DNA of 64,000 nucleotides from positions 3,609 to 67,608 of the forward strand of contig NZ_JABSSM010000023.1 of assembly GCF_013214165.1 (NCBI RefSeq), read 5' to 3'. The position numbers and the translations under genes are program-made. The DNA comes from Shewanella sp. (lineage in GTDB: Bacteria; Pseudomonadota; Gammaproteobacteria; Enterobacterales; Shewanellaceae). The stretch's first letter is position 1; each line of letters opens with the position of its first letter. This document shows positions 1 through 61,803 of this stretch, piece by piece. The notes beneath the pieces were generated by a model, which was not told the DNA's origin, ran no database searches, and saw only the letters and a list, made by a program, of their open reading frames with translations.

Positions 1-155
1 AAACCGTCTTGATTTAACTTACGTTGTAGCGCATGCATTGCCCCTAACCAAGCCGTCATTGCAGGGAAGCCTATGGTAAAAGGGCTAGATAATGCATTGG
101 CATTATGCACTTTAATATGTGGCAATATTAATAGGGTTTTGATTTCACCGCTCAT
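1..155 (-). CDS. csy2: Type I-F Csy2 (Cas5f), 5' part only; runs off the window
   Basis: Manual translation from ATG at 155-153 (ATGA overlap with csy1 stop, AAGGAGG RBS): MSGEIKTLLILPHIKVHNANALSSPFTIGFPAMTAWLGAMHALQRKL, the typical Csy2 N-terminus. Confidence 0.92.
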   Translation of the reverse strand, partial: MSGEIKTLLILPHIKVHNANALSSPFTIGFPAMTAWLGAMHALQRKLNQDG

Positions 156-1411
156 CGTAGCGCCTCCTTATGCTGAGTGATCATTCTCAAAAAATGTAAC
201 CGTTCTTCCTCACCTAGCATCACTGCCTGCTTACCCATAACCGTTTTATACGTGCTTGCAAACCAACTGGATATCTCATTGACCAAAGTATCTAGCCATT
301 CATCCGTGTTTTCACGTTCTTCGATAAACTCATGGTGTAACCATATTTTTTGCACGCGAGTCAGTTGTGATATCTCGCTGTTATATTGCAACTCAGAAAT
401 ACTGCGAATTGCCCACATTTTGGCAATGATTTTGTCCATCACTTCGTGAATACGCGCATCGCGACTATTACGTAATTTTTTATTGTTTTTATAATCAATT
501 TTAAAGATGCGGTGCAGCGCTTGAAACACATCCTTATATTCATAAGGTCGAAACGATTCGCTAAAAAAATTACTACGTGGAAAATGAATGGTGCGTTTTT
601 CTATTTGTGGTGGTAGTGATGACAACAGATGTGCTTTACCCCCATTTTGATTATTCAGCACGCTGATATTTTGTGGTTTAGTGCCGCCATAACCAATCGT
701 GGTTAAACCATATATTTCTGCAAAACCCTGCTCACTAAATTCATTCTTTTTCCTTAATTCTCTTAGTACTTTAACCTCGTCATTAAAACGTAAATTATCG
801 ATACGCTTTCGCAGCTGATATAACATGCCCGAATTGGTTAATAGGGAAAGCTGGTGATAGTCCTCTGCAACAGGAAAATACACTTGTTTTATTTTAGAGC
901 TGGTAACATTTTCACTGCCACTTTCCGCCATCGCGACAAAACCTGCTTTTAACTCCGTATAAGAGACTTCTTTTAGCGTCAATAACTGCGCGGCCAGTTG
1001 TGAATCATTTTGAATATGTGTGAGCAGTTGCTGGCCATCGGTCATTTCTAAGGTTAAAAATTTATACACATCCAGTGCCGCAGCGTTACCCAATGCATCG
1101 GTATCAACAACCACATTACCGCTGCGTAAAAAACCATCTATCGCACTGTCTGCGTTGGCGATAACCGAACTAACGTAGCCATTTTTATTTTTTCGAGCAC
1201 TCGGATGACTAAACGTACAGGGGTGCGTCGCCATTGAGATCTGACCCGCTCTTTTCGCCGCGTTGGGCAGCCAAGTTGATAACGAGAATACCGCTTCACA
1301 TTGTTGTTGTGTTTCTCGAATTTGAGCTTCATCCATCGAAGCCTTTAGATTTTTCTTTAACCACGCTTCTTTTCGTTCTTCAAAGAAACGGGTGATAGCA
1401 GGATCTAACAT
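152..1411 (-). CDS. csy1: Type I-F Csy1 (Cas8f)
   Basis: 419 aa; motifs ATHPCTFSHP, DALGNAAALDVYKFL, SSKIKQVYFPV, GGTKPQNIS; sits between cas2-3 and csy2. Confidence 0.95.
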   Translation of the reverse strand: MLDPAITRFFEERKEAWLKKNLKASMDEAQIRETQQQCEAVFSLSTWLPNAAKRAGQISMATHPCTFSHPSARKNKNGYVSSVIANADSAIDGFLRSGNVVVDTDALGNAAALDVYKFLTLEMTDGQQLLTHIQNDSQLAAQLLTLKEVSYTELKAGFVAMAESGSENVTSSKIKQVYFPVAEDYHQLSLLTNSGMLYQLRKRIDNLRFNDEVKVLRELRKKNEFSEQGFAEIYGLTTIGYGGTKPQNISVLNNQNGGKAHLLSSLPPQIEKRTIHFPRSNFFSESFRPYEYKDVFQALHRIFKIDYKNNKKLRNSRDARIHEVMDKIIAKMWAIRSISELQYNSEISQLTRVQKIWLHHEFIEERENTDEWLDTLVNEISSWFASTYKTVMGKQAVMLGEEERLHFLRMITQHKEALR

Positions 1412-4400
1412 TGCTCTCTCCCTATTTTCACTAATCCAAATTGATCACTGTACTCGTACTTCTCACCGTCTCTGACAACAAAACTTAATTCGCCATAACG
1501 CAGTGATACTTGCCGTCTTGTTGGTAGTACGTCTGCGTCAATGTGTGCATCTAATACATCAAGGTAATCGCGTACTAGCCATAAATTATTTCGTTCACTT
1601 GTCGATAAACTCACCGGCGTTATTTGCCATATGTTGTCGACATTGATTAAATTACCCGCGATATCTGTTATACGTAAACCTTGCTCGTCTTTCTCGGTAA
1701 AATAACAATCTTCATCATTGCTATTTGCCACTAAAAATATTTTACTACTGGGCTCACTTTGCCTAAACGAATGCAGCAGTTGTGGCATTGCCGTTAAAAA
1801 CCACGTTGAATCAAGGTAGCCTTGCAGTGCTTGTGGGCCGAGCTGGGTATATTGAGTCAGTAATGCACCTATAGCGCGATGTTCAATACCCGCTAAATGC
1901 TGGCCTTGTGATTGATCTAATTGAGTAATGCGAGGAATCGCATTGATGCCGTTTTCAAGCGCTGCCAGGTTGACAATTTTACTCAGATCATGGGTTGGCA
2001 TTGGCTTAGTTTCATAGCCTGGTCGGGTAAAATAAACACCGCCTTGTTTGTCGCCTGCTATATATGCTTGGTAGTTATATTGCATTAAGCCAATATTAGC
2101 TTGAGTCACTTCGCCTTCGCGATGACGACGAACCCGCCCTGCTAATTGCACAATAGAGCGATAAGACGACGGTTCAACTACTGCCCAGTCAAAGTCATGA
2201 TCTCGCCCAACTTCCTCTACTGGGGTGGCAACCAGAATAAAAATAATCTGCTTGGCGTTACTGTTATCAAGGTGACCACGAATAATGGCATTGCTGAACG
2301 CCTTTGGCGCTTCGCCGGCCTTTTCTTTGCGCTTTAACACTTGGTCAAGGTGCTGTTCTTGTTCATGACGCAGTAACAAAACCTGCTGGCTATGATATGC
2401 CATGACCTTGACTTCGGTATCCGCTGGAAATTCAGCACTCAACAAGTAGCGAGTTAACTCAACACAAGGAGAAATATTGGCAACCCGGACAACACCAAAT
2501 GACACCTGTTTATTTGTCAGTTCGTCAACGGTATGGTGGTGTTGATGTTTCACTAACACCGCGTCTTTAATATGCTGAAAATAAGTCTCTTGCTTGCTTA
2601 TTCCATCTGTCGATTTAGTGTTAACCCTGTTGACTTCGCACGCCACAATATGGCCTTTACGTTTCGCGGTTTGATTGGTTAGCAACTTGATACGTTTATC
2701 AATAAAGGCATCGTGGAACGATTTATATTGCGCTATGGCGGGTTCACTATCACTAGATTTGACAGTTTCAACCTGAGTATACGACTCGTCAATCCAAGCA
2801 CAGCCTATAATGGCCTGTGACTCGGTACGTGATAGGCAATATAACTGCCAGCCTTTTTTGTAGGCATTAAAATAGCCTTCAGCCAAGCTTGGGGGAATGG
2901 TGGCAGAAGATATCATCACCTTACGCCCCAGCATGCCAGCAAGGTGAATAAGTCGCCCGATGGCAATTAAATCTGAACCGGTAAAATCATCAATTTCATC
3001 AATCACCAGATCAGACGACATCAAGCGTAATGACGGTAAAATATAACGACCACCGCGTTTGGTTTCTGTTGCCGCCATGATGTGATCAATCGTGCAAGCT
3101 AAAACGGGGGCATAAAGAAACTGCTTATCTTTATTTTTAGTCAGCACTGTCGTTAGGCCACTTTCAGGAATATCACAGTCATAATCAATAAACTCATCCA
3201 GTAACGACTCTGCCGATTCAGAACCCACGGCTTCCGCTGTCAATTCTTCCTCTGCTGCTACACGCTTATTATGTAAATCAGCCACCGCTTTAGACCCAAT
3301 TAACACGGCCAGTTGGCTTTTATCCAATCCGATACGTTGTCGATATTCATCGCCAGTCTGCAAGGTCAATGTGCGTAACCCAAGCGCTAAAATATAGCGC
3401 AAACTTTGCTGATCTACCGATAATGCTCGCATCACTTTGGCGTTAGCGAAGGTTTTACCACAGCCCGTACTCGCCATATTGACCGCAAAAAAACCAAACG
3501 CTTGCTTGGACTGCTGTTGGCGCCACTCCGTTATACTTTCTACCGCTTTATCTTGCCAACGAAATGCTTTAGGACTTGGCTTTCTTAACGCTTGAATATC
3601 TTGGGCTAACGGTGGTTCAGACTCAAAGGCAGGTAATAGATGCGCGGTATCCAGTGCCACTTTAGCGACGCCCACCAAGTGCTCATCTAATTTCTGCTTT
3701 AACTGATTAGTGTCTCGGTCGGTATTAGCAAATAAACCTGTGGTATCTTGCCAACCTTTGGCAGCATCTTGAGATGAATAGTTATGATCACCTAACATCA
3801 AACACAAACGCGCATGATGTAATACTAAACGATAGCTGCCGTCGGCGATCGCCTCTTTAATTAGTGGTAATTGATGTTGTAATTGGGTCGCCCTGCGTTT
3901 AACTAACTTATTCCATTGTGGAGACTGGGTTAATAAACCTTTGGGGAATTCAAAGCATTGTTTAACCCGGGCTTGATATTCAACTTCATCTTGGCGATTT
4001 TCATAGCCCCATTCTTGACTAATCTCACCCAGCAAATCGTCTATTCGCGGAAAGTCTTCTCCGAGATATTTGTTTCTTACTGCTTTTTTATCCCAAGAAT
4101 ACAAGGGTAATCTATGGTGCGAGACGAGCAACCAAGCGATGAGTTTGGCAGCATCTGGCAGTCCTTGCAGTGGTTTGCTGATGTTTTCACTCGAGACGGC
4201 TTTAATTCGCTGTTCGTCCAACTCGCCCATAATAAGCACTTTGAGCCAGTCTTCATCGCCAGCATCACTCGAACGAACCAGTGCATTAAGCAATAAACAA
4301 GATATCCATTCGTGTCGGATCGGATCACCTTTACATTTACTTTTACTGTCTGGGTTGAGCTTATTTTGAAACAGTCGCGATGCCTTGCCCCAATCATGTA

Positions 4401-4764
4401 ACAGCGCGGCAAGTCCGGTGAGCGATTTTATTAATGGCAGATACTTCCAATCATTTTCTATTTCCATGTTTAACAAGTTTCGCTTGGTAGTATTCACTGG
4501 CACCACTCCTTCACCATTAAACTTACTCTTATTGCCCACCACCCATATAAACTGACTGCGAGCGCGTGAGCGGATCCAATGGCAGCTCACCGCGGTACTT
4601 TTACTGGCAGTTTGTCGCAGCATCTTTTTTACCGCCTGCAAGCCGTCTTCAGTGATAATGGTTTGCCAGGTATTGTCACCGATGCGATTGGCAAAGGCGT
4701 CTAACACCCGCCGGGTTTTCTTTAAGGCGTTTTTCTCGCACATTGACACGAATGTAACCATCAT
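1405..4764 (-). CDS. cas3: Type I-F Cas2-3 fusion (Cas2 domain + HD nuclease + SF2 helicase)
   Basis: N-terminal Cas2-like MVTFVSMCEKNALKKTRRVLD; HD motif LLHDWGK; Walker A ASTGCGKT; DEID box; ATPVEEVGRDHDFD. Confidence 0.97.
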   Translation of the reverse strand: MMVTFVSMCEKNALKKTRRVLDAFANRIGDNTWQTIITEDGLQAVKKMLRQTASKSTAVSCHWIRSRARSQFIWVVGNKSKFNGEGVVPVNTTKRNLLNMEIENDWKYLPLIKSLTGLAALLHDWGKASRLFQNKLNPDSKSKCKGDPIRHEWISCLLLNALVRSSDAGDEDWLKVLIMGELDEQRIKAVSSENISKPLQGLPDAAKLIAWLLVSHHRLPLYSWDKKAVRNKYLGEDFPRIDDLLGEISQEWGYENRQDEVEYQARVKQCFEFPKGLLTQSPQWNKLVKRRATQLQHQLPLIKEAIADGSYRLVLHHARLCLMLGDHNYSSQDAAKGWQDTTGLFANTDRDTNQLKQKLDEHLVGVAKVALDTAHLLPAFESEPPLAQDIQALRKPSPKAFRWQDKAVESITEWRQQQSKQAFGFFAVNMASTGCGKTFANAKVMRALSVDQQSLRYILALGLRTLTLQTGDEYRQRIGLDKSQLAVLIGSKAVADLHNKRVAAEEELTAEAVGSESAESLLDEFIDYDCDIPESGLTTVLTKNKDKQFLYAPVLACTIDHIMAATETKRGGRYILPSLRLMSSDLVIDEIDDFTGSDLIAIGRLIHLAGMLGRKVMISSATIPPSLAEGYFNAYKKGWQLYCLSRTESQAIIGCAWIDESYTQVETVKSSDSEPAIAQYKSFHDAFIDKRIKLLTNQTAKRKGHIVACEVNRVNTKSTDGISKQETYFQHIKDAVLVKHQHHHTVDELTNKQVSFGVVRVANISPCVELTRYLLSAEFPADTEVKVMAYHSQQVLLLRHEQEQHLDQVLKRKEKAGEAPKAFSNAIIRGHLDNSNAKQIIFILVATPVEEVGRDHDFDWAVVEPSSYRSIVQLAGRVRRHREGEVTQANIGLMQYNYQAYIAGDKQGGVYFTRPGYETKPMPTHDLSKIVNLAALENGINAIPRITQLDQSQGQHLAGIEHRAIGALLTQYTQLGPQALQGYLDSTWFLTAMPQLLHSFRQSEPSSKIFLVANSNDEDCYFTEKDEQGLRITDIAGNLINVDNIWQITPVSLSTSERNNLWLVRDYLDVLDAHIDADVLPTRRQVSLRYGELSFVVRDGEKYEYSDQFGLVKIGREQC

Positions 4765-4780
4765 CAGATTTAACCTACCT

Positions 4781-4948
4781 TCATTCGTTATCCAAAAAGT
4801 TTTTTATCGCTATGCTTAACTTAACCATGAATATTAGTAATTCCCCACTCCTATGCCAAGACATACGGCACCGACACTTATCAATACATCTTCTTATTTT
4901 TATTATTAAATTAAGCATCACCCTGTACACAGCACATACTATTTTCAT
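4781..4948 (-). CDS. Putative 55-aa small ORF upstream of cas2-3 (candidate toxin or leader ORF)
   Basis: GAGAGG (4963-4958) 9 nt before ATG at 4948; MKIVCAVYRVMLNLIIKIRRCIDKCRCRMSWHRSGELLIFMVKLSIAIKNFLDNE; its TGA abuts the cas2-3 RBS; no recognised family. Confidence 0.4.
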   Translation of the reverse strand: MKIVCAVYRVMLNLIIKIRRCIDKCRCRMSWHRSGELLIFMVKLSIAIKNFLDNE

Positions 4949-4995
4949 TATAAGAAGCCTCTCATCCATTAAAGAGAGCACAGCTTACCCTACCC

Positions 4996-5024
4996 GATCT
5001 AACCGATCAACCTATGTATGTCAA
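4996..5024 (-). promoter_or_regulatory. Candidate sigma70 promoter for small ORF + cas2-3/csy operon
   Basis: Perfect TTGACA at 5024-5019; imperfect -10 at 17-nt (TAGATC) or 16-nt (TTAGAT) spacing. Confidence 0.55.
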
Positions 5025-5033
5025 AAATAAAAC
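5011..5033 (+). promoter_or_regulatory. PAM + protospacer matched by the mini-array spacer
   Basis: CC (5011-5012) then TATGTATGTCAAAAATAAAAC versus spacer TATGTATGTCAAAAATATAAA; first 17 nt identical, 19/21 overall. Confidence 0.9.
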
Positions 5034-5051
5034 TGTGACTTATGAAAGATA

Positions 5052-5080
5052 GTGACGCTAACCTATCAATCCAATATAAT
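5052..5080 (+). promoter_or_regulatory. sigma70 promoter of the mini-array
   Basis: GTGACG (5052-5057), N17, perfect TATAAT (5075-5080); predicted TSS about 5085-5087. Confidence 0.75.
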
Positions 5081-5081
5081 G

Positions 5082-5158
5082 ACCAGCTGCCGCACAGGCA
5101 GCTTAGAAATATGTATGTCAAAAATATAAAGTACACTGCCGAGCAGGCAGCCTAACAG
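5082..5158 (+). CRISPR. Mini-array (pseudo-repeat / 21-nt spacer / pseudo-repeat), antisense to cas genes; CreA/CreR-like regulatory crRNA
   Basis: R1 accagCTGCCGCACAGGCAGCTTAGAAA (last 23 nt identical to array repeat); spacer 5110-5130; R2 GTACACTGCCGAGCAGGCAGcctaacag (5-bp stem intact), overlapping the cas1 stop. Confidence 0.9.
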
Positions 5159-6168
5159 CCAGCAACATTATTGCTGGCTGTTTTTTCATTAAGGGCAATG
5201 TTTTTTACCGTCTCAAACATAAAATCGAGCGCTTTATGATCGGTAAATGCTTGCAGTACTTGCTGCCTAAACTCTTGTTCGGTGAGCTTTTCTTTAGCGC
5301 AAATAAAAGCCCAAGGTAAGACGATGGCATCTTTAATCAAATCGGCAATATCAAACACCAAGGCTCCCCTTCTGGTCTTGCCGTGCATCACGGCAAAACC
5401 GTGGGGTATGCCTAATACCCATAGGGTGGTTGCCGCTAACCCATAAGCGAGATAATTACCATGATTGAGAAAGTCGTTGGCCTTGTCGGTAGACTGATGC
5501 TGACGGGTAAAGTCTGACGTGTTAGTCACATTGGCGGCAAATTTGTAGAGCTGCTTGGTGAGCTGCGCTTCGGTTAACAAGAGATCTGACGGCTTAGCGG
5601 CGGTGATCATGCGTTGATCAAAACGCTGTAATGCAGCTTCAATATTGCTATCGCTAGTCGTAAAACCTGCTAATTTAAGATCCCTGTCTTTACCCCAAAC
5701 ATGATGTAAAAATTCAATCCGTGCTTGTTGAAATTGTTTGGCGGCATCGAGTCGTTTATTGTCATCAAACCAAAAACCCATCCAACCTTGTAAGTATTCC
5801 GTAGGGCGATATTCACTTTGTGGGGTAAACCATTCAATGGCATTGCCCATGTATAACGGTGTGCCTCCGCCACCAGAAAAACCAATCAATACGCCGGCTT
5901 GTGCCAACATTCTTACCGCAGCTTGGGTGATCGACGTACCATTGCCCAGTAACAGAACCGTGGTATTGGCAATGGGAATATTGAAGTATTGGTTTTCTTT
6001 CTTTGCCTCTGTCAGATACAACACCCGACCGTCTTTTTGCATCACTCGGCAATATTCGAGGTAATAGATGTTGGCACGCTTAGAGTGCAGTATCGCTTTG
6101 AGATCTGATGATGAAAAGTTATCCAATTTATCGGCCCGTATTATATTGTTGGGTGAGTAAGGTGCCAC
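5152..6168 (-). CDS. cas1: Type I-F Cas1
   Basis: DLKAILHSKRANIYYLEYCRV, NIPIANTT, HGKTRRGALVFDIADLIKD motifs; true start probably TTG at 6126 (MDNFSSSDLK) by analogy with I-F Cas1 N-termini. Confidence 0.97.
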   Translation of the reverse strand: MAPYSPNNIIRADKLDNFSSSDLKAILHSKRANIYYLEYCRVMQKDGRVLYLTEAKKENQYFNIPIANTTVLLLGNGTSITQAAVRMLAQAGVLIGFSGGGGTPLYMGNAIEWFTPQSEYRPTEYLQGWMGFWFDDNKRLDAAKQFQQARIEFLHHVWGKDRDLKLAGFTTSDSNIEAALQRFDQRMITAAKPSDLLLTEAQLTKQLYKFAANVTNTSDFTRQHQSTDKANDFLNHGNYLAYGLAATTLWVLGIPHGFAVMHGKTRRGALVFDIADLIKDAIVLPWAFICAKEKLTEQEFRQQVLQAFTDHKALDFMFETVKNIALNEKTASNNVAGC

Positions 6169-6258: not shown

Positions 6259-7086
6259 TTAATGGTTTAAAAGCCACTTTTTGATGTCATCTTGGTTGAC
6301 TAGAATTAATTGTTGGGCCTCTGGCGTGCCGTCTAACATTTTGGTATTGACCTGCAACTCCCGCAGCAAATAACTGGCCAGTGCGGCGCGGGTGTTAATA
6401 ATGAGTTGGCCGCCTTCCATTTGATAGTCATGGGCTAGTACTGCTTTTTTTGCAGGGGATAAGCGTGGATCTGGCTGTAAAATAAGTGGGATGTAGGTTT
6501 GCCAGTCACGATCTAAGCTGGCGTCTTGGTAAGGCCCATCTACAATGTCTGCCACGCCTCTGAAGCGGCTTAATACTAGGTCACGGTATTGTTGTGATTT
6601 TTCGCAATAACCTCTTACATGCCAACGTAATCCTGTATTGACGAATGTATGAGGATGAAAAATACGCCCATCACTCTCTGGATTAGACAGGGAAATATAA
6701 TTAGTTTCCATTCGTTTACGTTGCCGAATCGCTTTTACCAGTACCCTGATAACGTCGACTGAGACTCTGCGGGTGGGCAGGGCAAGATGGCTGACGTTAG
6801 CGGTAATGGGAGAGTGTTCATGAATTTGCTTTGTGTCAAACCACTGAAGATATTGATTAATGTCTGATGACATATAGTGTGCGATAAATGTTTTACTGGG
6901 CTTAAAACCATGGCTGGTTTGAATTAAGTTATCAGGAAACTGTTCATTGTAACGTTTAAAGTCTTGATAAGCCTGTTGGCGACTGATAGCAAATTGTTCA
7001 GTGAGTTGTTTATTCGTTACAGTGCCTTCCCACCATGCGACTAGTTCAATGAACAGTTTCCTCTGTTGTAAATTATTTGTAGCCAT
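6259..7086 (-). CDS. wHTH-WYL transcriptional regulator, CapW-like
   Basis: N-terminal IELVAWWEG...FAISRQQAYQDF (wHTH); WYL core FHPHTFVNTGLRWHVRGYCEKSQQYRDLVLSRF; C-terminal PDPRLS...DYQM...TRAAL dimerisation-type segment. Confidence 0.85.
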   Translation of the reverse strand: MATNNLQQRKLFIELVAWWEGTVTNKQLTEQFAISRQQAYQDFKRYNEQFPDNLIQTSHGFKPSKTFIAHYMSSDINQYLQWFDTKQIHEHSPITANVSHLALPTRRVSVDVIRVLVKAIRQRKRMETNYISLSNPESDGRIFHPHTFVNTGLRWHVRGYCEKSQQYRDLVLSRFRGVADIVDGPYQDASLDRDWQTYIPLILQPDPRLSPAKKAVLAHDYQMEGGQLIINTRAALASYLLRELQVNTKMLDGTPEAQQLILVNQDDIKKWLLNH

Positions 7087-7297
7087 ACCCTTCCTTAGGT
7101 TGTGTACACCAGAGTCAAATATCCGGACATATGATAAGCCTATGCTTTTATTAACAACTTAACGTTTAACAATATCACATTACAGGATATTTATGGCGAA
7201 CACTAGACGGTTGTTTTTTGTTGCAGTGATAGAGCAATTAGCTGAACGTAAAAGTGAGTTGATTTAAAGAGTTGGTAAGATTAGTCACAGTTGAGGA

Positions 7298-8646
7298 TTT
7301 CTAAGCTAGCTGCGCAGCAGTGAACCGGCCGGTGCTGTTATCTAATCCTCATGTGATTTTCTAAGCTGCCTGTGCGGCAGTGAACGTATAACGTTATCGG
7401 GTCCAGGTTCCTCGAGTTTTCTAATCTGCCTGTGCGGCAGTGAACCGTAGGAGGGGCTTCAGCCCCGATGCATATAGATTTCTAAGCTGCCTGTGCGGCA
7501 GTGAACGTACCAAACAAATTTACGCTAGTCGCTAGGCTTTTCTAAGCTGCCTGTGCGGCAGTGAACACCAAACTAAACCTACAACGGCCCAGCTCGCATT
7601 TCTAAGCTGCCTGTGCGGCAGTGAACTGCTTCGCGACGCGCTGTTATGAACACCGCCGTTTCTAAGCTGCCTGTGCGGCAGTGAACCGGGTAACACTAGA
7701 AACTTTAGACTCGGTGATTTTCTAAGCTGCCTGTGCGGCAGTGAACTGAATATCGATACTCAGGCCATATTTTTGGATTTTCTAAGCTGCCTGTGCGGCA
7801 GTGAACATTATTAACGTTAAGCTCTAGGTTTTCGACTCTTTCTAAGCTGCCTGTGCGGCAGTGAACGCGGACGCTTTGCAGTGCGCATATACGCTGGATT
7901 TCTAAGCTGCCTGTGCGGCAGTGAACCGGATACTGTTCTCGAGTATTACAAAATCGACTTTCTAAGCTGCCTGTGCGGCAGTGAACCCCAGAGTCGGTGA
8001 AAGCAAAATTTTCTGGATTTTCTAAGCTGCCTGTGCGGCAGTGAACCAAGGCGGCGCACTGGTTGTTGTTGTTCGGGTTTTCTAAGCTGCCTGTGCGGCA
8101 GTGAACTGCTAGCAATTCGGCGGCGCTGTTGTCTTCTGTTTCTAAGCTGCCTGTGCGGCAGTGAATGCAGAGGCTAGACGCATAGAAGACGCTCGACTTT
8201 TCTAAGCTGCCTGTGCGGCAGTGAACCCTACAGAGTTTCTAATAGAGTCGATGCGTGATTTCTAAGCTGCCTGTGCGGCAGTGAACTAATCAGCTAACGA
8301 TAACCTCACAAGTTGAAATTTCTAAGCTGCCTGTGCGGCAGTGAACGAGATCAAAGAGTTCAATATGTTTGTCGGCACTTTCTAAGCTGCCTGTGCGGCA
8401 GTGAACGCCTATCCTCAACACTCACCCACTCGCTTTGTTTTCTAAGCTGCCTGTGCGGCAGTGAACAGGGGCGGCAGGGGCGCACGATGATGTGTACATT
8501 TCTAAGCTGCCTGTGCGGCAGTGAACAGTGTGAAGAAAAATACTTAACTTATGCTGCTTTTCTAAGCTGCCTGTGCGGCAGTGAACTAGGTGTGACATCG
8601 GTTAAATCTGCTGTGAGCTTTCTAAGCTGCCTGTGCGGCAGTGAAC
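7298..8646 (-). CRISPR. Type I-F CRISPR array, 23 repeats / 22 spacers
   Basis: 28-nt repeat GTTCACTGCCGCACAGGCAGCTTAGAAA (minus); 32-nt spacers (one of 33); degenerate terminal repeat at 7298-7325 (4 mismatches) and single-base variants at 7418 and 8139; leader on the right. Confidence 0.99.
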
Positions 8647-8790
8647 ACTAGCATAGCAGCACAAAAATAAGTTACAACAAGTCTTTAGGTAAAAAATACC
8701 TATTTAACCTTCTAAAATATGACTTGTTGTAACTGATTGTTTTTCTTGTTGATTTTTAAATAGCGAAAAATAAGGGTTAAAACCAGTGTT
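8647..8790 (-). promoter_or_regulatory. CRISPR leader with IHF-like sites and inverted repeats
   Basis: AT-rich; perfect 14-bp IR AGTTACAACAAGTC (8670-8683) / GACTTGTTGTAACT (8721-8734); AAACAATCAGTTA (minus, 8742-8730) fits IHF consensus WATCAANNNNTTR at all but one position. Confidence 0.8.
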
Positions 8791-36838: not shown

Positions 36839-37075
36839 TTATTGGCGGGTATAAATCTGTAGAATGAGGGTCTTGTTATTGCCTTTAAGCCACTAAGCCT
36901 TTAAAAACTGTAAAAGCCATGACAAATCAGCATAAGCATTATTGGCGGGTATAGATCTGTAGAATGAAGGTCTTGTTATTGCCACTAAGCCTTTAAAAAC
37001 TGTAAAAGCCATGACAAATCAGCATAAGCATTATTGGCGGGTATAGATCTGTAGGATAGGTGTCTTGTTATTGCC
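36839..37075 (-). repeat. Three diverged copies of the last 45 nt of the 37031 gene with a shared 47-nt linker
   Basis: Copies at 36839-36883, 36939-36983, 37031-37075; periods 100 and 92 bp. Confidence 0.95.
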
Positions 37076-37462
37076 AAATGAGAGTGTCATTGAGATGCTT
37101 TCTCCTCGTTTAAACTTCTGCTTATAGGTAAGGGGAGAGAGACGTCCGCCATCTCCCATGAGTGCCATAAGCTGATCACTTTTAAAAATTCGGCTACCCG
37201 ATGATTGATTTTCCAGGGTCACCACGGCGCGACGATCGCCTTTTTCATTACTCATCAAGATGTAATTGACCACAATAAAGTCACTAATTTTCGGCTGTAT
37301 ATCACCATCATTGGTGAAATTAAGCTCAACATCATTAGAGACGATTCTGTCGACACTAAAAACATCACTCAGCTCGTTTTCGTCTGGCTTGTTAGCGGAA
37401 AAACTACTAAAACTGATCAAGGAGGTGACCAATAATAGGCTTGTGGTTAATTGACGGTTCAA
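37031..37462 (-). CDS. Secreted hypothetical protein, 143 aa
   Basis: Signal peptide; no family recognised. Confidence 0.8.
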   Translation of the reverse strand: MNRQLTTSLLLVTSLISFSSFSANKPDENELSDVFSVDRIVSNDVELNFTNDGDIQPKISDFIVVNYILMSNEKGDRRAVVTLENQSSGSRIFKSDQLMALMGDGGRLSPLTYKQKFKRGESISMTLSFGNNKTPILQIYTRQ

Positions 37463-37564
37463 AAGAACCTCCTGTTTTGAATAATTTCTTGTTCAGGTGC
37501 TAGCCATCGCCAAGTTTCTCTTAACCCTAGGATGACAAACACAGGCACTAACACTTACTTAAGG

Positions 37565-61670: not shown

Positions 61671-61803
61671 TAGTAGGAGAACAAATTTTTAGCCATTGAC
61701 TATGGCTGGCACCATTAATACTCATAGTAGGAGAACAAATTTTTAGCCATTGACTATGGCTGGCACCATTAATACTCCTCGCTGGCACCATTAATACTCC
61801 CTC
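61671..61803. repeat. Nested tandem duplications at upstream end of Y1 transposase element
   Basis: 53-bp unit at 61671-61723 and 61725-61777 (contains hairpin AGCCAT-TGACT-ATGGCT), plus 22-23-bp GCTGGCACCATTAATACTCC(C)TC duplicated at 61759-61803. Confidence 0.92.

Follow-up and report, generated by a model that had tools for sequence, protein, structure and literature searches.

A mini-CRISPR cassette between cas1 and cas2-3 of a Shewanella type I-F system as a probable guide-RNA repressor of the interference operon

The 64,000-nucleotide (nt) stretch of Shewanella sp. DNA analysed here (contig NZ_JABSSM010000023.1, positions 3,609 to 67,608), called the window below, carries a type I-F CRISPR system whose cas1 and cas2-3 genes are separated by a gap of 387 bp. 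This gap holds an antisense mini-array and a small open reading frame (ORF) of 55 codons, ORF55. The cassette is probably (probability about 0.7, by analogy with known systems) a regulatory mini-CRISPR loop of the CreR/CreA type, in which a guide RNA would lead the Csy complex to a promoter facing cas2-3 and the csy genes. The reading is built on the anatomy of the unit, on the co-variation of its spacer and target with those of a homologous cassette, and on a geometry that is found family-wide in other type I-F mini-arrays, all three of which were observed in this analysis.

Anatomy of the mini-array and its target

The mini-array lies compactly on the plus strand, in antisense orientation to the cas genes, and is made of a promoter-like site, a repeat-like element (PsiR1), a short spacer-like element (PsiS), a second repeat-like element (PsiR2) and a terminator. 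Its target, which consists of a protospacer-adjacent motif (PAM) and a protospacer, lies in the same gap. The parts are as follows.

5052-5080, plus strand: predicted mini-array promoter, GTGACG-17-TATAAT, the top-scoring plus-strand candidate
5082-5109, plus strand: PsiR1, repeat-like, ACCAGCTGCCGCACAGGCAGCTTAGAAA, equal to the array repeat at 23 of 28 positions
5110-5130, plus strand: PsiS, spacer-like, 21 nt, TATGTATGTCAAAAATATAAA
5131-5158, plus strand: PsiR2, repeat-like, GTACACTGCCGAGCAGGCAGCCTAACAG, Cas6f hairpin intact
5154-5193, plus direction only: intrinsic terminator that would end the mini-array transcript, with a stem of 12 bp (5154-5182) and then a T-run
5011-5033, plus strand: target, PAM CC at 5011-5012 and protospacer at 5013-5033

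Two repeat-like units thus flank one short spacer inside the cas locus, and everything required for one mature guide has been retained, namely both Cas6f hairpins and the 8-nt 5' handle of PsiR1. Both units have an undamaged CTGCC/GGCAG stem, while the parts that are not needed have degenerated. PsiR1 agrees fully with the array repeat in the Cas6f hairpin and the handle CTTAGAAA and is degenerate only in its first 5 nt, while in PsiR2 the degenerate part is the 3' part, which would be the next handle if it were kept. PsiR1 and PsiR2 both match the Rfam family CRISPR-DR4 on the plus strand. The mini-array's transcription start site (TSS) is predicted to lie near 5087, at the base of the PsiR1 hairpin, and the predicted transcript folds into two repeat hairpins and the terminator (z = -5). 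An equivalent TATAAT precedes PsiR1 of the homologous cassette, L153, which is described below. The origin of the cassette was sought by blastn against 80 related genome loci, plasmids and phages, and only the repeat units matched.

PsiS is partly complementary to a nearby site flanked by CC, the PAM of the subtype. Spacer and protospacer are identical at positions 1-17, 19 and 20 (19/21) and differ at position 18, which is a "sixth" position, and at position 21, the last one; positions 6 and 12 match. The PAM with the first 17 nt is present only at the target and at the spacer in the 64-kb window, where 0.03 matches with as many as 3 mismatches would be expected by chance. Pairing of the guide would be to the minus strand, the non-template one in the transcription of the cas genes. 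Elsewhere in the window the guide has a single further candidate target, at 37533-37545 on the minus strand, which is mismatched in the seed and at chance level; the sequence there, CCTGTGTTTGTCA, resembles the PAM and seed of the target, with a mismatch at seed position 2. A phage-borne mimic of the guide was also considered, and the sole viral-contig match (L201) was rejected as a chance 19-mer in a coding region, without a hairpin.

Co-variation with a homologous cassette

Among the matches listed, there is one homologous cassette, L153, located downstream of a cas1 gene whose product has 74% protein identity. Window and L153 share a flank that reads GATCAAC(A)CC followed by TATGTAT, and beyond position 7 both the spacer and the target of L153 have changed. 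The two spacers differ at 9 positions, and all of those that are not multiples of six (7/7) are compensated in the target, the only mismatches in this comparison being position 12 in L153 and position 18 in the window. Complementarity has thus been kept in evolution between the window and this single homologous cassette, which indicates that selection acts on the pairing. No other in-silico evidence for functional pairing is as strong as this co-variation, which comes from this one homologue.

Geometry of type I-F mini-arrays

A pattern scan of metagenome contigs for short-spacer type I-F mini-arrays gave at least 120 loci, and most of the listed mini-arrays are placed between cas2-3 and csy1. 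The mini-arrays in the fetched loci had at least 105 unique spacers, at least 46 with a CC-flanked partial match nearby and at least 34 in divergent arrangement. For each of 34 listed loci, a hexamer TTGnnn with at least 4/6 matches to TTGACA was looked for on the opposite strand, and its position was counted from the PAM. Among these matches, 20 of 34 have such a hexamer 0-3 nt after the PAM, 12 of them at offset 0, against a background of 0.016 per offset per locus (binomial P = 7e-16), and a TAnnnT follows at 16-18 nt in 19 of the 20. In standard modules the csy1 ATG is found 63-79 nt after the PAM. With an A+T content of about 80%, the surveyed protospacers would cover the zone of UP elements, about -38 to -58. 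They mismatch with a frequency of 0.70-0.78 at positions 6, 12 and 18, while no other position from 1 to 17 exceeds 0.22, and such periodic mismatches fit the known flipped bases of type I-F guides. This conserved geometry of PAM, -35 and start codon makes the promoters and TSSs of such circuits predictable from sequence.

The predicted promoter that faces cas2-3 and csy

The first-pass annotation of the window had described the target as the -35 box itself, a minus-strand TTGACA in the protospacer (5024-5019; the plus strand at 5019-5024 reads TGTCAA) with an imperfect -10 downstream. These elements exist, since TAGATC (5001-4996) follows at 17 nt and TTAGAT (5002-4997) at 16 nt, and the target does lie against a predicted promoter facing cas2-3 and csy. 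The choice of TTGACA as its -35 is not supported, and another pair of elements fits better with the homologous cassette and with the surveyed mini-arrays.

5005-5010, minus strand: predicted -35 TTGATC, directly abutting the PAM, conserved in L153, containing GATC
4982-4987, minus strand: predicted -10 TAAGCT, 17 nt after TTGATC
4996-5024, minus strand: earlier candidate promoter, TTGACA-17-TAGATC, with a poor -10 and not conserved

By position weight matrix (PWM), TTGATC-17-TAAGCT scores 9.1 bits. At the level of consensus matching it abuts the PAM, and the best cas-sense candidate of L153, TTGATC-17-TAAACT, begins 2 nt past the PAM and shares both the -35 and the spacing. TTGATC/TAAGCT is therefore the conserved element, for which the TSS is expected near 4975 and not near 4990, and the target stretch 5011-5033 spans about -37 to -58 of this promoter. 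In the same region L153 has TTTATA in place of TTGACA, and no -10. An offset of -14 from the PAM, that of TTGACA, occurs among the 34 listed loci only in the window. Both proposed -10 hexamers break near-invariant positions (TAGATC lacks T6 and TTAGAT lacks A2; 0.0 and -0.6 bits), so no -10 with A2 and T6 stands at 16-18 nt from TTGACA, and TTGACA-17-TAGATC is absent from the calls of the consensus scan.

The exact version of the first-pass annotation, with TTGACA as -35, TAGATC as -10, a TSS near 4990 and repression by melting or occlusion, is for these reasons doubtful, and its -35 was probably placed 14 bp off. It has in its favour the 6/6 match of TTGACA, whose chance in a 21-nt AT-rich protospacer is estimated from base composition at about 0.005, a whole-promoter PWM score of 9.6 bits that is slightly above that of the TTGATC promoter, and a minority of other mini-arrays with a -35 in the protospacer, which are three listed loci at offset -8. 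From the sequence comparison it is concluded that the target abuts the principal -35, TTGATC, and is not itself that -35. The TTGACA promoter may be a secondary, overlapping one, and binding of Csy would block either.

The target promoter has two GATC (Dam) sites, at 5005-5008 in TTGATC and at 4996-4999 in TAGATC. TTGATC is also the -35 in L153 and in the surveyed locus L124, and a methylation-sensitive promoter activity is conceivable.

The 55-codon open reading frame

The start codon of the small ORF is found where the geometry of the standard modules has that of csy1.

4781-4948, minus strand: small ORF of 55 codons (MKIVCAVYRV...FLDNE), net charge +7, ATG 64 nt after the PAM
4958-4963, minus strand: Shine-Dalgarno-like GAGAGG, 9 nt before the ATG at 4948

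The longest open frame of this ORF starts with GTG at 4981 and has 66 amino acids (aa). In L153 an ATG at +61, preceded by AAGGAG, likewise opens an ORF of 55 codons, so that a 55-codon ORF with a Shine-Dalgarno sequence stands in both cassettes where the toxin gene of a CreTA/CrePA system would be expected. Each of the two frames has one in-frame stop, against 5-11 in the other frames, and both products are Ile-rich with a charge of +7, with an identity of only about 20%. No homologue was found in protein sets of 5.8 billion and 1.8 billion sequences, where the window and L153 ORFs match only themselves, and no domain was matched in Pfam or PADLOC. An 842-aa protein with 24% identity in four matched stretches was not counted, as its match is probably repetitive or spurious. 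The ORF has no KilAC domain such as that of CreP, and it is not a few-codon mini-ORF with tandem rare codons and a stem-loop such as that of CreT. The 5' region and the small ORF show no excess of RNA folding (z = -0.4) and, besides the CRISPR repeats, no Rfam family. A 26-nt imperfect inverted repeat is found in the small ORF (4812-4837 / 4893-4918, 77% complementary), in a region whose fold is not above that of shuffles.

Several surveyed loci (L102/L158, L128, L116 and L053/L080) have unrelated ORFs of 41-70 aa with a Shine-Dalgarno sequence between the controlled promoter and csy1, with a hydrophobic stretch of 17 residues in L102/L158 and L128. They are candidates for further CRISPR-repressed small proteins.

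Layout of the cas locus

All cas genes of the window are on the minus strand, and their order (cas1, antisense mini-array, small ORF, cas2-3, csy1, csy2) is as it was first annotated.

7357-8650, minus strand: canonical CRISPR array of type I-F with about 22 repeats of GTTCACTGCCGCACAGGCAGCTTAGAAA, 60-nt period
6259-7086, minus strand: WYL-domain gene between the array and cas1, with Pfam WYL and PADLOC "CAS associated_signaling" WYL matches
5152-6168, minus strand: cas1
1405-4764, minus strand: cas2-3, starting 16 nt beyond the stop of the small ORF
152-1411, minus strand: csy1, its ATG overlapping the cas2-3 stop
1-154, minus strand: 5' end of csy2, its ATG overlapping the csy1 stop

The stop/start overlaps at cas2-3/csy1 and csy1/csy2 leave no room for a separate csy promoter, and on this layout csy1 and csy2 are in one operon with cas2-3. 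Because no terminator-like site was called on the minus strand between the small ORF and cas2-3, and the spacing is 16 nt, the controlled unit is taken as ORF55-cas2-3-csy.

The WYL protein is a possible protein regulator of the same locus, alongside the RNA loop. The last 9 or so codons of cas1 and its stop (5152-5185) are encoded within the terminator hairpin of the cassette; the insertion has replaced the native Cas1 C-terminus, and the Cas1 of Shewanella benthica KT99 ends with ...QGHDETEGQSQ. Tandem repeats are present far from the CRISPR locus, at 36889-37076 (92 bp, 2 copies, 95% matches) and 61671-61800 (54 bp / 22 bp, 100% matches).

Distribution of the cassette among relatives

A Cas1-based scan with one genome per species gave 80 related loci. 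The closest of them, that of S. benthica KT99 (95% Cas1 identity), has contiguous cas1, cas2-3 and csy1 genes and no mini-array. A repeat-like hairpin in the cas1/cas2-3 gap was found in 0/80 loci, and antisense mini-arrays stand at the classical cas2-3/csy1 site in 6/80. Placement between cas1 and cas2-3 is rare, with one other case among at least 105 unique mini-arrays and in none of the 80 related genomes. No mini-array was found in the long cas1/cas2-3 gaps of 17 related genomes, and 12 of these gaps, when read, proved to contain other cargo or repeated sequence.

Run X5, from another sediment metagenome, contains an allele with about 98% identity in cas1 and cas2-3 that lacks 4741-5212 of the window. 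In this contig, of depth 78, those 472 bp are replaced by 78 other bases. A low-depth contig of the same run carries the cassette, so that both alleles coexist in sediment populations, and together with KT99 the X5 allele shows that the cassette is an insertion/deletion polymorphism.

The cas1/cas2-3 junction is a hot spot for cargo in related type I-F loci. A common uncharacterised ORF of 122-140 aa (MT(S/T)W...) is found in the gaps of L002, L003 and L021, and an ORF in a similar place in L051 starts with MTSY. Other gaps hold RHH and ParE (L013, L017), a PIN toxin with its partner (L022), a KilA-N protein (L033) or a Cys-rich ORF of 87 aa (L007), and a recurring repeated motif of the type TGTAGGTCG is found in L006, L068 and L078.

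Proposed mechanism and alternative explanations

At the sequence level, and as regards the promoter at the level of consensus matching, the cassette has every feature by which type I-F regulatory mini-arrays are recognised, and the following CreR/CreA-type loop is proposed, in which RNA processing, binding without cleavage, repression and relief are modelled on other type I-F, I-E and V-A systems. The plus-strand unit would be transcribed antisense to the cas genes from its own promoter at 5052-5080, and Cas6f would cut both hairpins to give a guide of 49 nt, in which 8 nt form the handle, 21 nt the spacer and 20 nt the hairpin. Csy loaded with this guide would recognise CC at 5011-5012 and pair over about 20 nt (5013-5032). 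The R-loop would be too short to license Cas2-3, and the complex would stay bound, covering the UP-element zone, abutting the -35 TTGATC (5010-5005) and blocking initiation. It would also melt the overlapping TTGACA, and would be a roadblock on the non-template strand against read-through from cas1. More free Csy would mean less output of the operon of ORF55, cas2-3, csy1, csy2 and onwards. The array at 7357-8650 would supply the normal CRISPR RNAs (crRNAs) that compete for Csy, and output would rise when Csy is titrated by these crRNAs or disabled by anti-CRISPRs.

Several points weigh against this proposal. A spacer of 21 nt is at the short end for bacterial CreA/CreR, which typically have 23-27 nt, and the 34 survey loci are not phylogenetically independent. 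The promoter calls are all at consensus level, and none exceeds the 95th percentile of the shuffle control (median best score 8.7, 95th percentile 11.5). The highest score, 11.4, at the 95th percentile of the shuffles, belongs to TTGGCA (4859)-17-TAATAT inside the small ORF, which may be a source of cas2-3 mRNA that depends neither on the target nor on Csy. No indexed RNA run was found to contain the locus, and in three small metatranscriptomes of the same samples only two contigs were obtained (5804-6009 and 7037-7230), with none on the cassette. Since close relatives, KT99 and the X5 allele, have no cassette, it is also dispensable. The two metatranscriptome contigs are both from run X15, are the only ones on the first 9 kb and have a very low depth that tells nothing about regulation; one lies in cas1 and the other at the 5' end of the WYL gene and upstream of it.

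The same circuit may have another purpose. In a guard of the CreTA/CrePA kind, ORF55 would be the main regulated product, a Csy-repressed toxin that acts as a protein or as a codon-rich RNA and is unleashed when Csy is lost or blocked by an anti-CRISPR, and the control of cas2-3 and csy would be a by-product or a second function. Such a guard is compatible with the CreR/CreA loop, from which it differs only in what the circuit is for, and is considered tentatively, as somewhat unlikely. The architecture resembles that of Acinetobacter type I-F CreTA/CrePA, with an intergenic insert of about 400 bp and, downstream of a CC-flanked target, an ORF that has a Shine-Dalgarno sequence and diverges from creA, and type I-F mini-arrays of Pseudomonas aeruginosa were recently reported to control CreT toxins. 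The placement, charge and single stop of the 55-codon ORFs in the window and L153 agree with it, as do the small ORFs, some with a hydrophobic stretch, at the same spot of other type I-F loci and the ParE, PIN and KilA-N genes in the cas1/cas2-3 gap of relatives. Both ORFs have an in-frame AUA-AUA, and that of the window also an AGA-AGA, which are codon pairs of archaeal CreT toxins. However, the rare-codon run does not open a mini-ORF but is at codons 15-20 of ORF55, ATA is not a rare codon in the genes of the window (15.7 per 1000), the RNA structure downstream is not significant, ORF55 has no homologue and little identity to the ORF of L153, and without a terminator before cas2-3 it looks like the first cistron of the cas operon. 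The fuller form of this idea, a CreTA/CrePA-type guard heading the whole interference operon, in which Csy would repress a toxin, the orphan, basic, Ile-rich ORF55, that works as a protein or through tRNA sequestration and is co-transcribed with cas2-3-csy, is more doubtful still.

Bound Csy might instead act only as a roadblock. The cassette would then have no promoter of its own for the cas genes, cas2-3 and csy would be transcribed from cas1, and the polymerase would be halted at 5033-5011. In KT99 the cas1-cas2-3-csy operon is contiguous. Read on the minus strand, the large hairpin is not followed by a T-run, so that cas1 transcripts probably enter the cassette, and the guide would pair with the non-template strand, which in type I-E repression has been reported as the effective orientation for Cascade roadblocks. 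The spacing of PAM, -35, -10, Shine-Dalgarno sequence and ATG, with the start codon at +64, is conserved across the family, which argues for a real promoter, and the antisense of the PsiR2 hairpin with a T-rich tract is terminator-like on the minus strand; transcription from cas1 with a roadblock as the whole mechanism is thus improbable. It is far less probable that the cassette is a functionless remnant, a decayed array fragment beside a chance or duplicated 20-mer. Closely related strains do without it, and the match of spacer and target even at positions 6 and 12 is what a recent duplication would give. A remnant would not be expected to have the correct PAM, exactly the parts for one mature crRNA, its own promoter and terminator, the 7/7 co-variation with L153 and the geometry of the family-wide pattern.

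Relation to known systems

The type I-F1 mini-array of P. aeruginosa YL84 represses its target promoter without cleavage, and Cas3 and Cas1 are dispensable for it (Shmakov et al. 2023, PMC10120712). In YL84 and in the window alike, two repeat-like units with a shortened spacer are oriented opposite to the cas genes, and the target, which has a CC PAM, lies at a cas promoter, in the window a predicted one; mini-arrays of the YL84 type are found in only some closely related strains, as is the cassette of the window. The mini-array of YL84 is located between cas2-3 and cas8f/csy1 and controls only the Cascade operon, whereas that of the window is between cas1 and cas2-3, with a 55-codon ORF intervening. 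Positions 6 and 12 are mismatched in YL84 and matched in the window.

In CrePA of Acinetobacter baylyi ADP1, also of type I-F, the -35 is immediately downstream of the CreA target, and the promoter is derepressed by anti-CRISPRs (Shu et al. 2024, bioRxiv 10.1101/2024.01.05.574328). The window has the same arrangement of a creA divergent from a protein-coding ORF and a target with a CC PAM. CreP of ADP1 is a KilAC-domain protein of 103 aa, encoded about 120 bp after the target in the cas3-csy1 gap, while the window has a predicted 55-aa ORF with no recognised domain in the cas1-cas2-3 gap. CreTA of Acinetobacter sp. WCHA45 is, like the cassette of the window, an intergenic insert of about 400 bp that is missing in close relatives, with a Shine-Dalgarno mini-ORF divergent from creA, and its 20-nt PsiS pairs at 17 positions but not at the 6th, 11th and 18th (Wang et al. 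2023, PMC10097628). In WCHA45 a small RNA with an ORF of 33 bp serves as CreT, and the target is downstream of PcreT. Promoters under CreA control have thus far been characterised in Acinetobacter strains. In the window, by contrast, the ORF has 55 codons and the target is upstream of the -35 and abuts it.

CreR autorepression is known from type I-B, type I-E (Salmonella) and type V-A (Moraxella bovoculi) systems, in which a degenerate mini-CRISPR guides the effector to its own promoter beside the -35, and relief by crRNA abundance and by anti-CRISPRs was shown in types I-E and V-A (Liu et al. 2023, bioRxiv 10.1101/2023.03.10.532045). The logic of feedback and anti-CRISPR relief proposed in the first-pass annotation is the published CreR/CreA model. 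The cases validated by Liu et al. are from other subtypes and have no small ORF, and type I-F candidates are only listed there.

Biological meaning

In types I-B, I-E, I-F, II-A and V-A it is already established by experiment that RNAs resembling crRNAs make Cas effectors repress their own promoter or that of a toxin and so sense crRNA load and anti-CRISPRs, and the cassette brings no new concept. What is new in the window is the position between cas1 and cas2-3 and the orphan 55-codon first cistron, a possible CreT/CreP-like toxin, and the full match at positions 6 and 12 is a further difference from the known cases.

For the annotation of divergent type I-F mini-arrays, the geometry gives a rule in which the PAM abuts the -35 (GG followed at once by TTGAnn-17-TAnnnT) and the start codon comes about 64 nt later. 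With the position between cas1 and cas2-3, a guide RNA would control not only Cascade but also Cas2-3, a nuclease-helicase that belongs to the adaptation complex as well. The orphan first cistron is a candidate for a new CRISPR-repressed toxin, and if a guard of this type heads the operon, inhibition of Csy would fire the toxin together with a burst of nuclease and Cascade from a single promoter.

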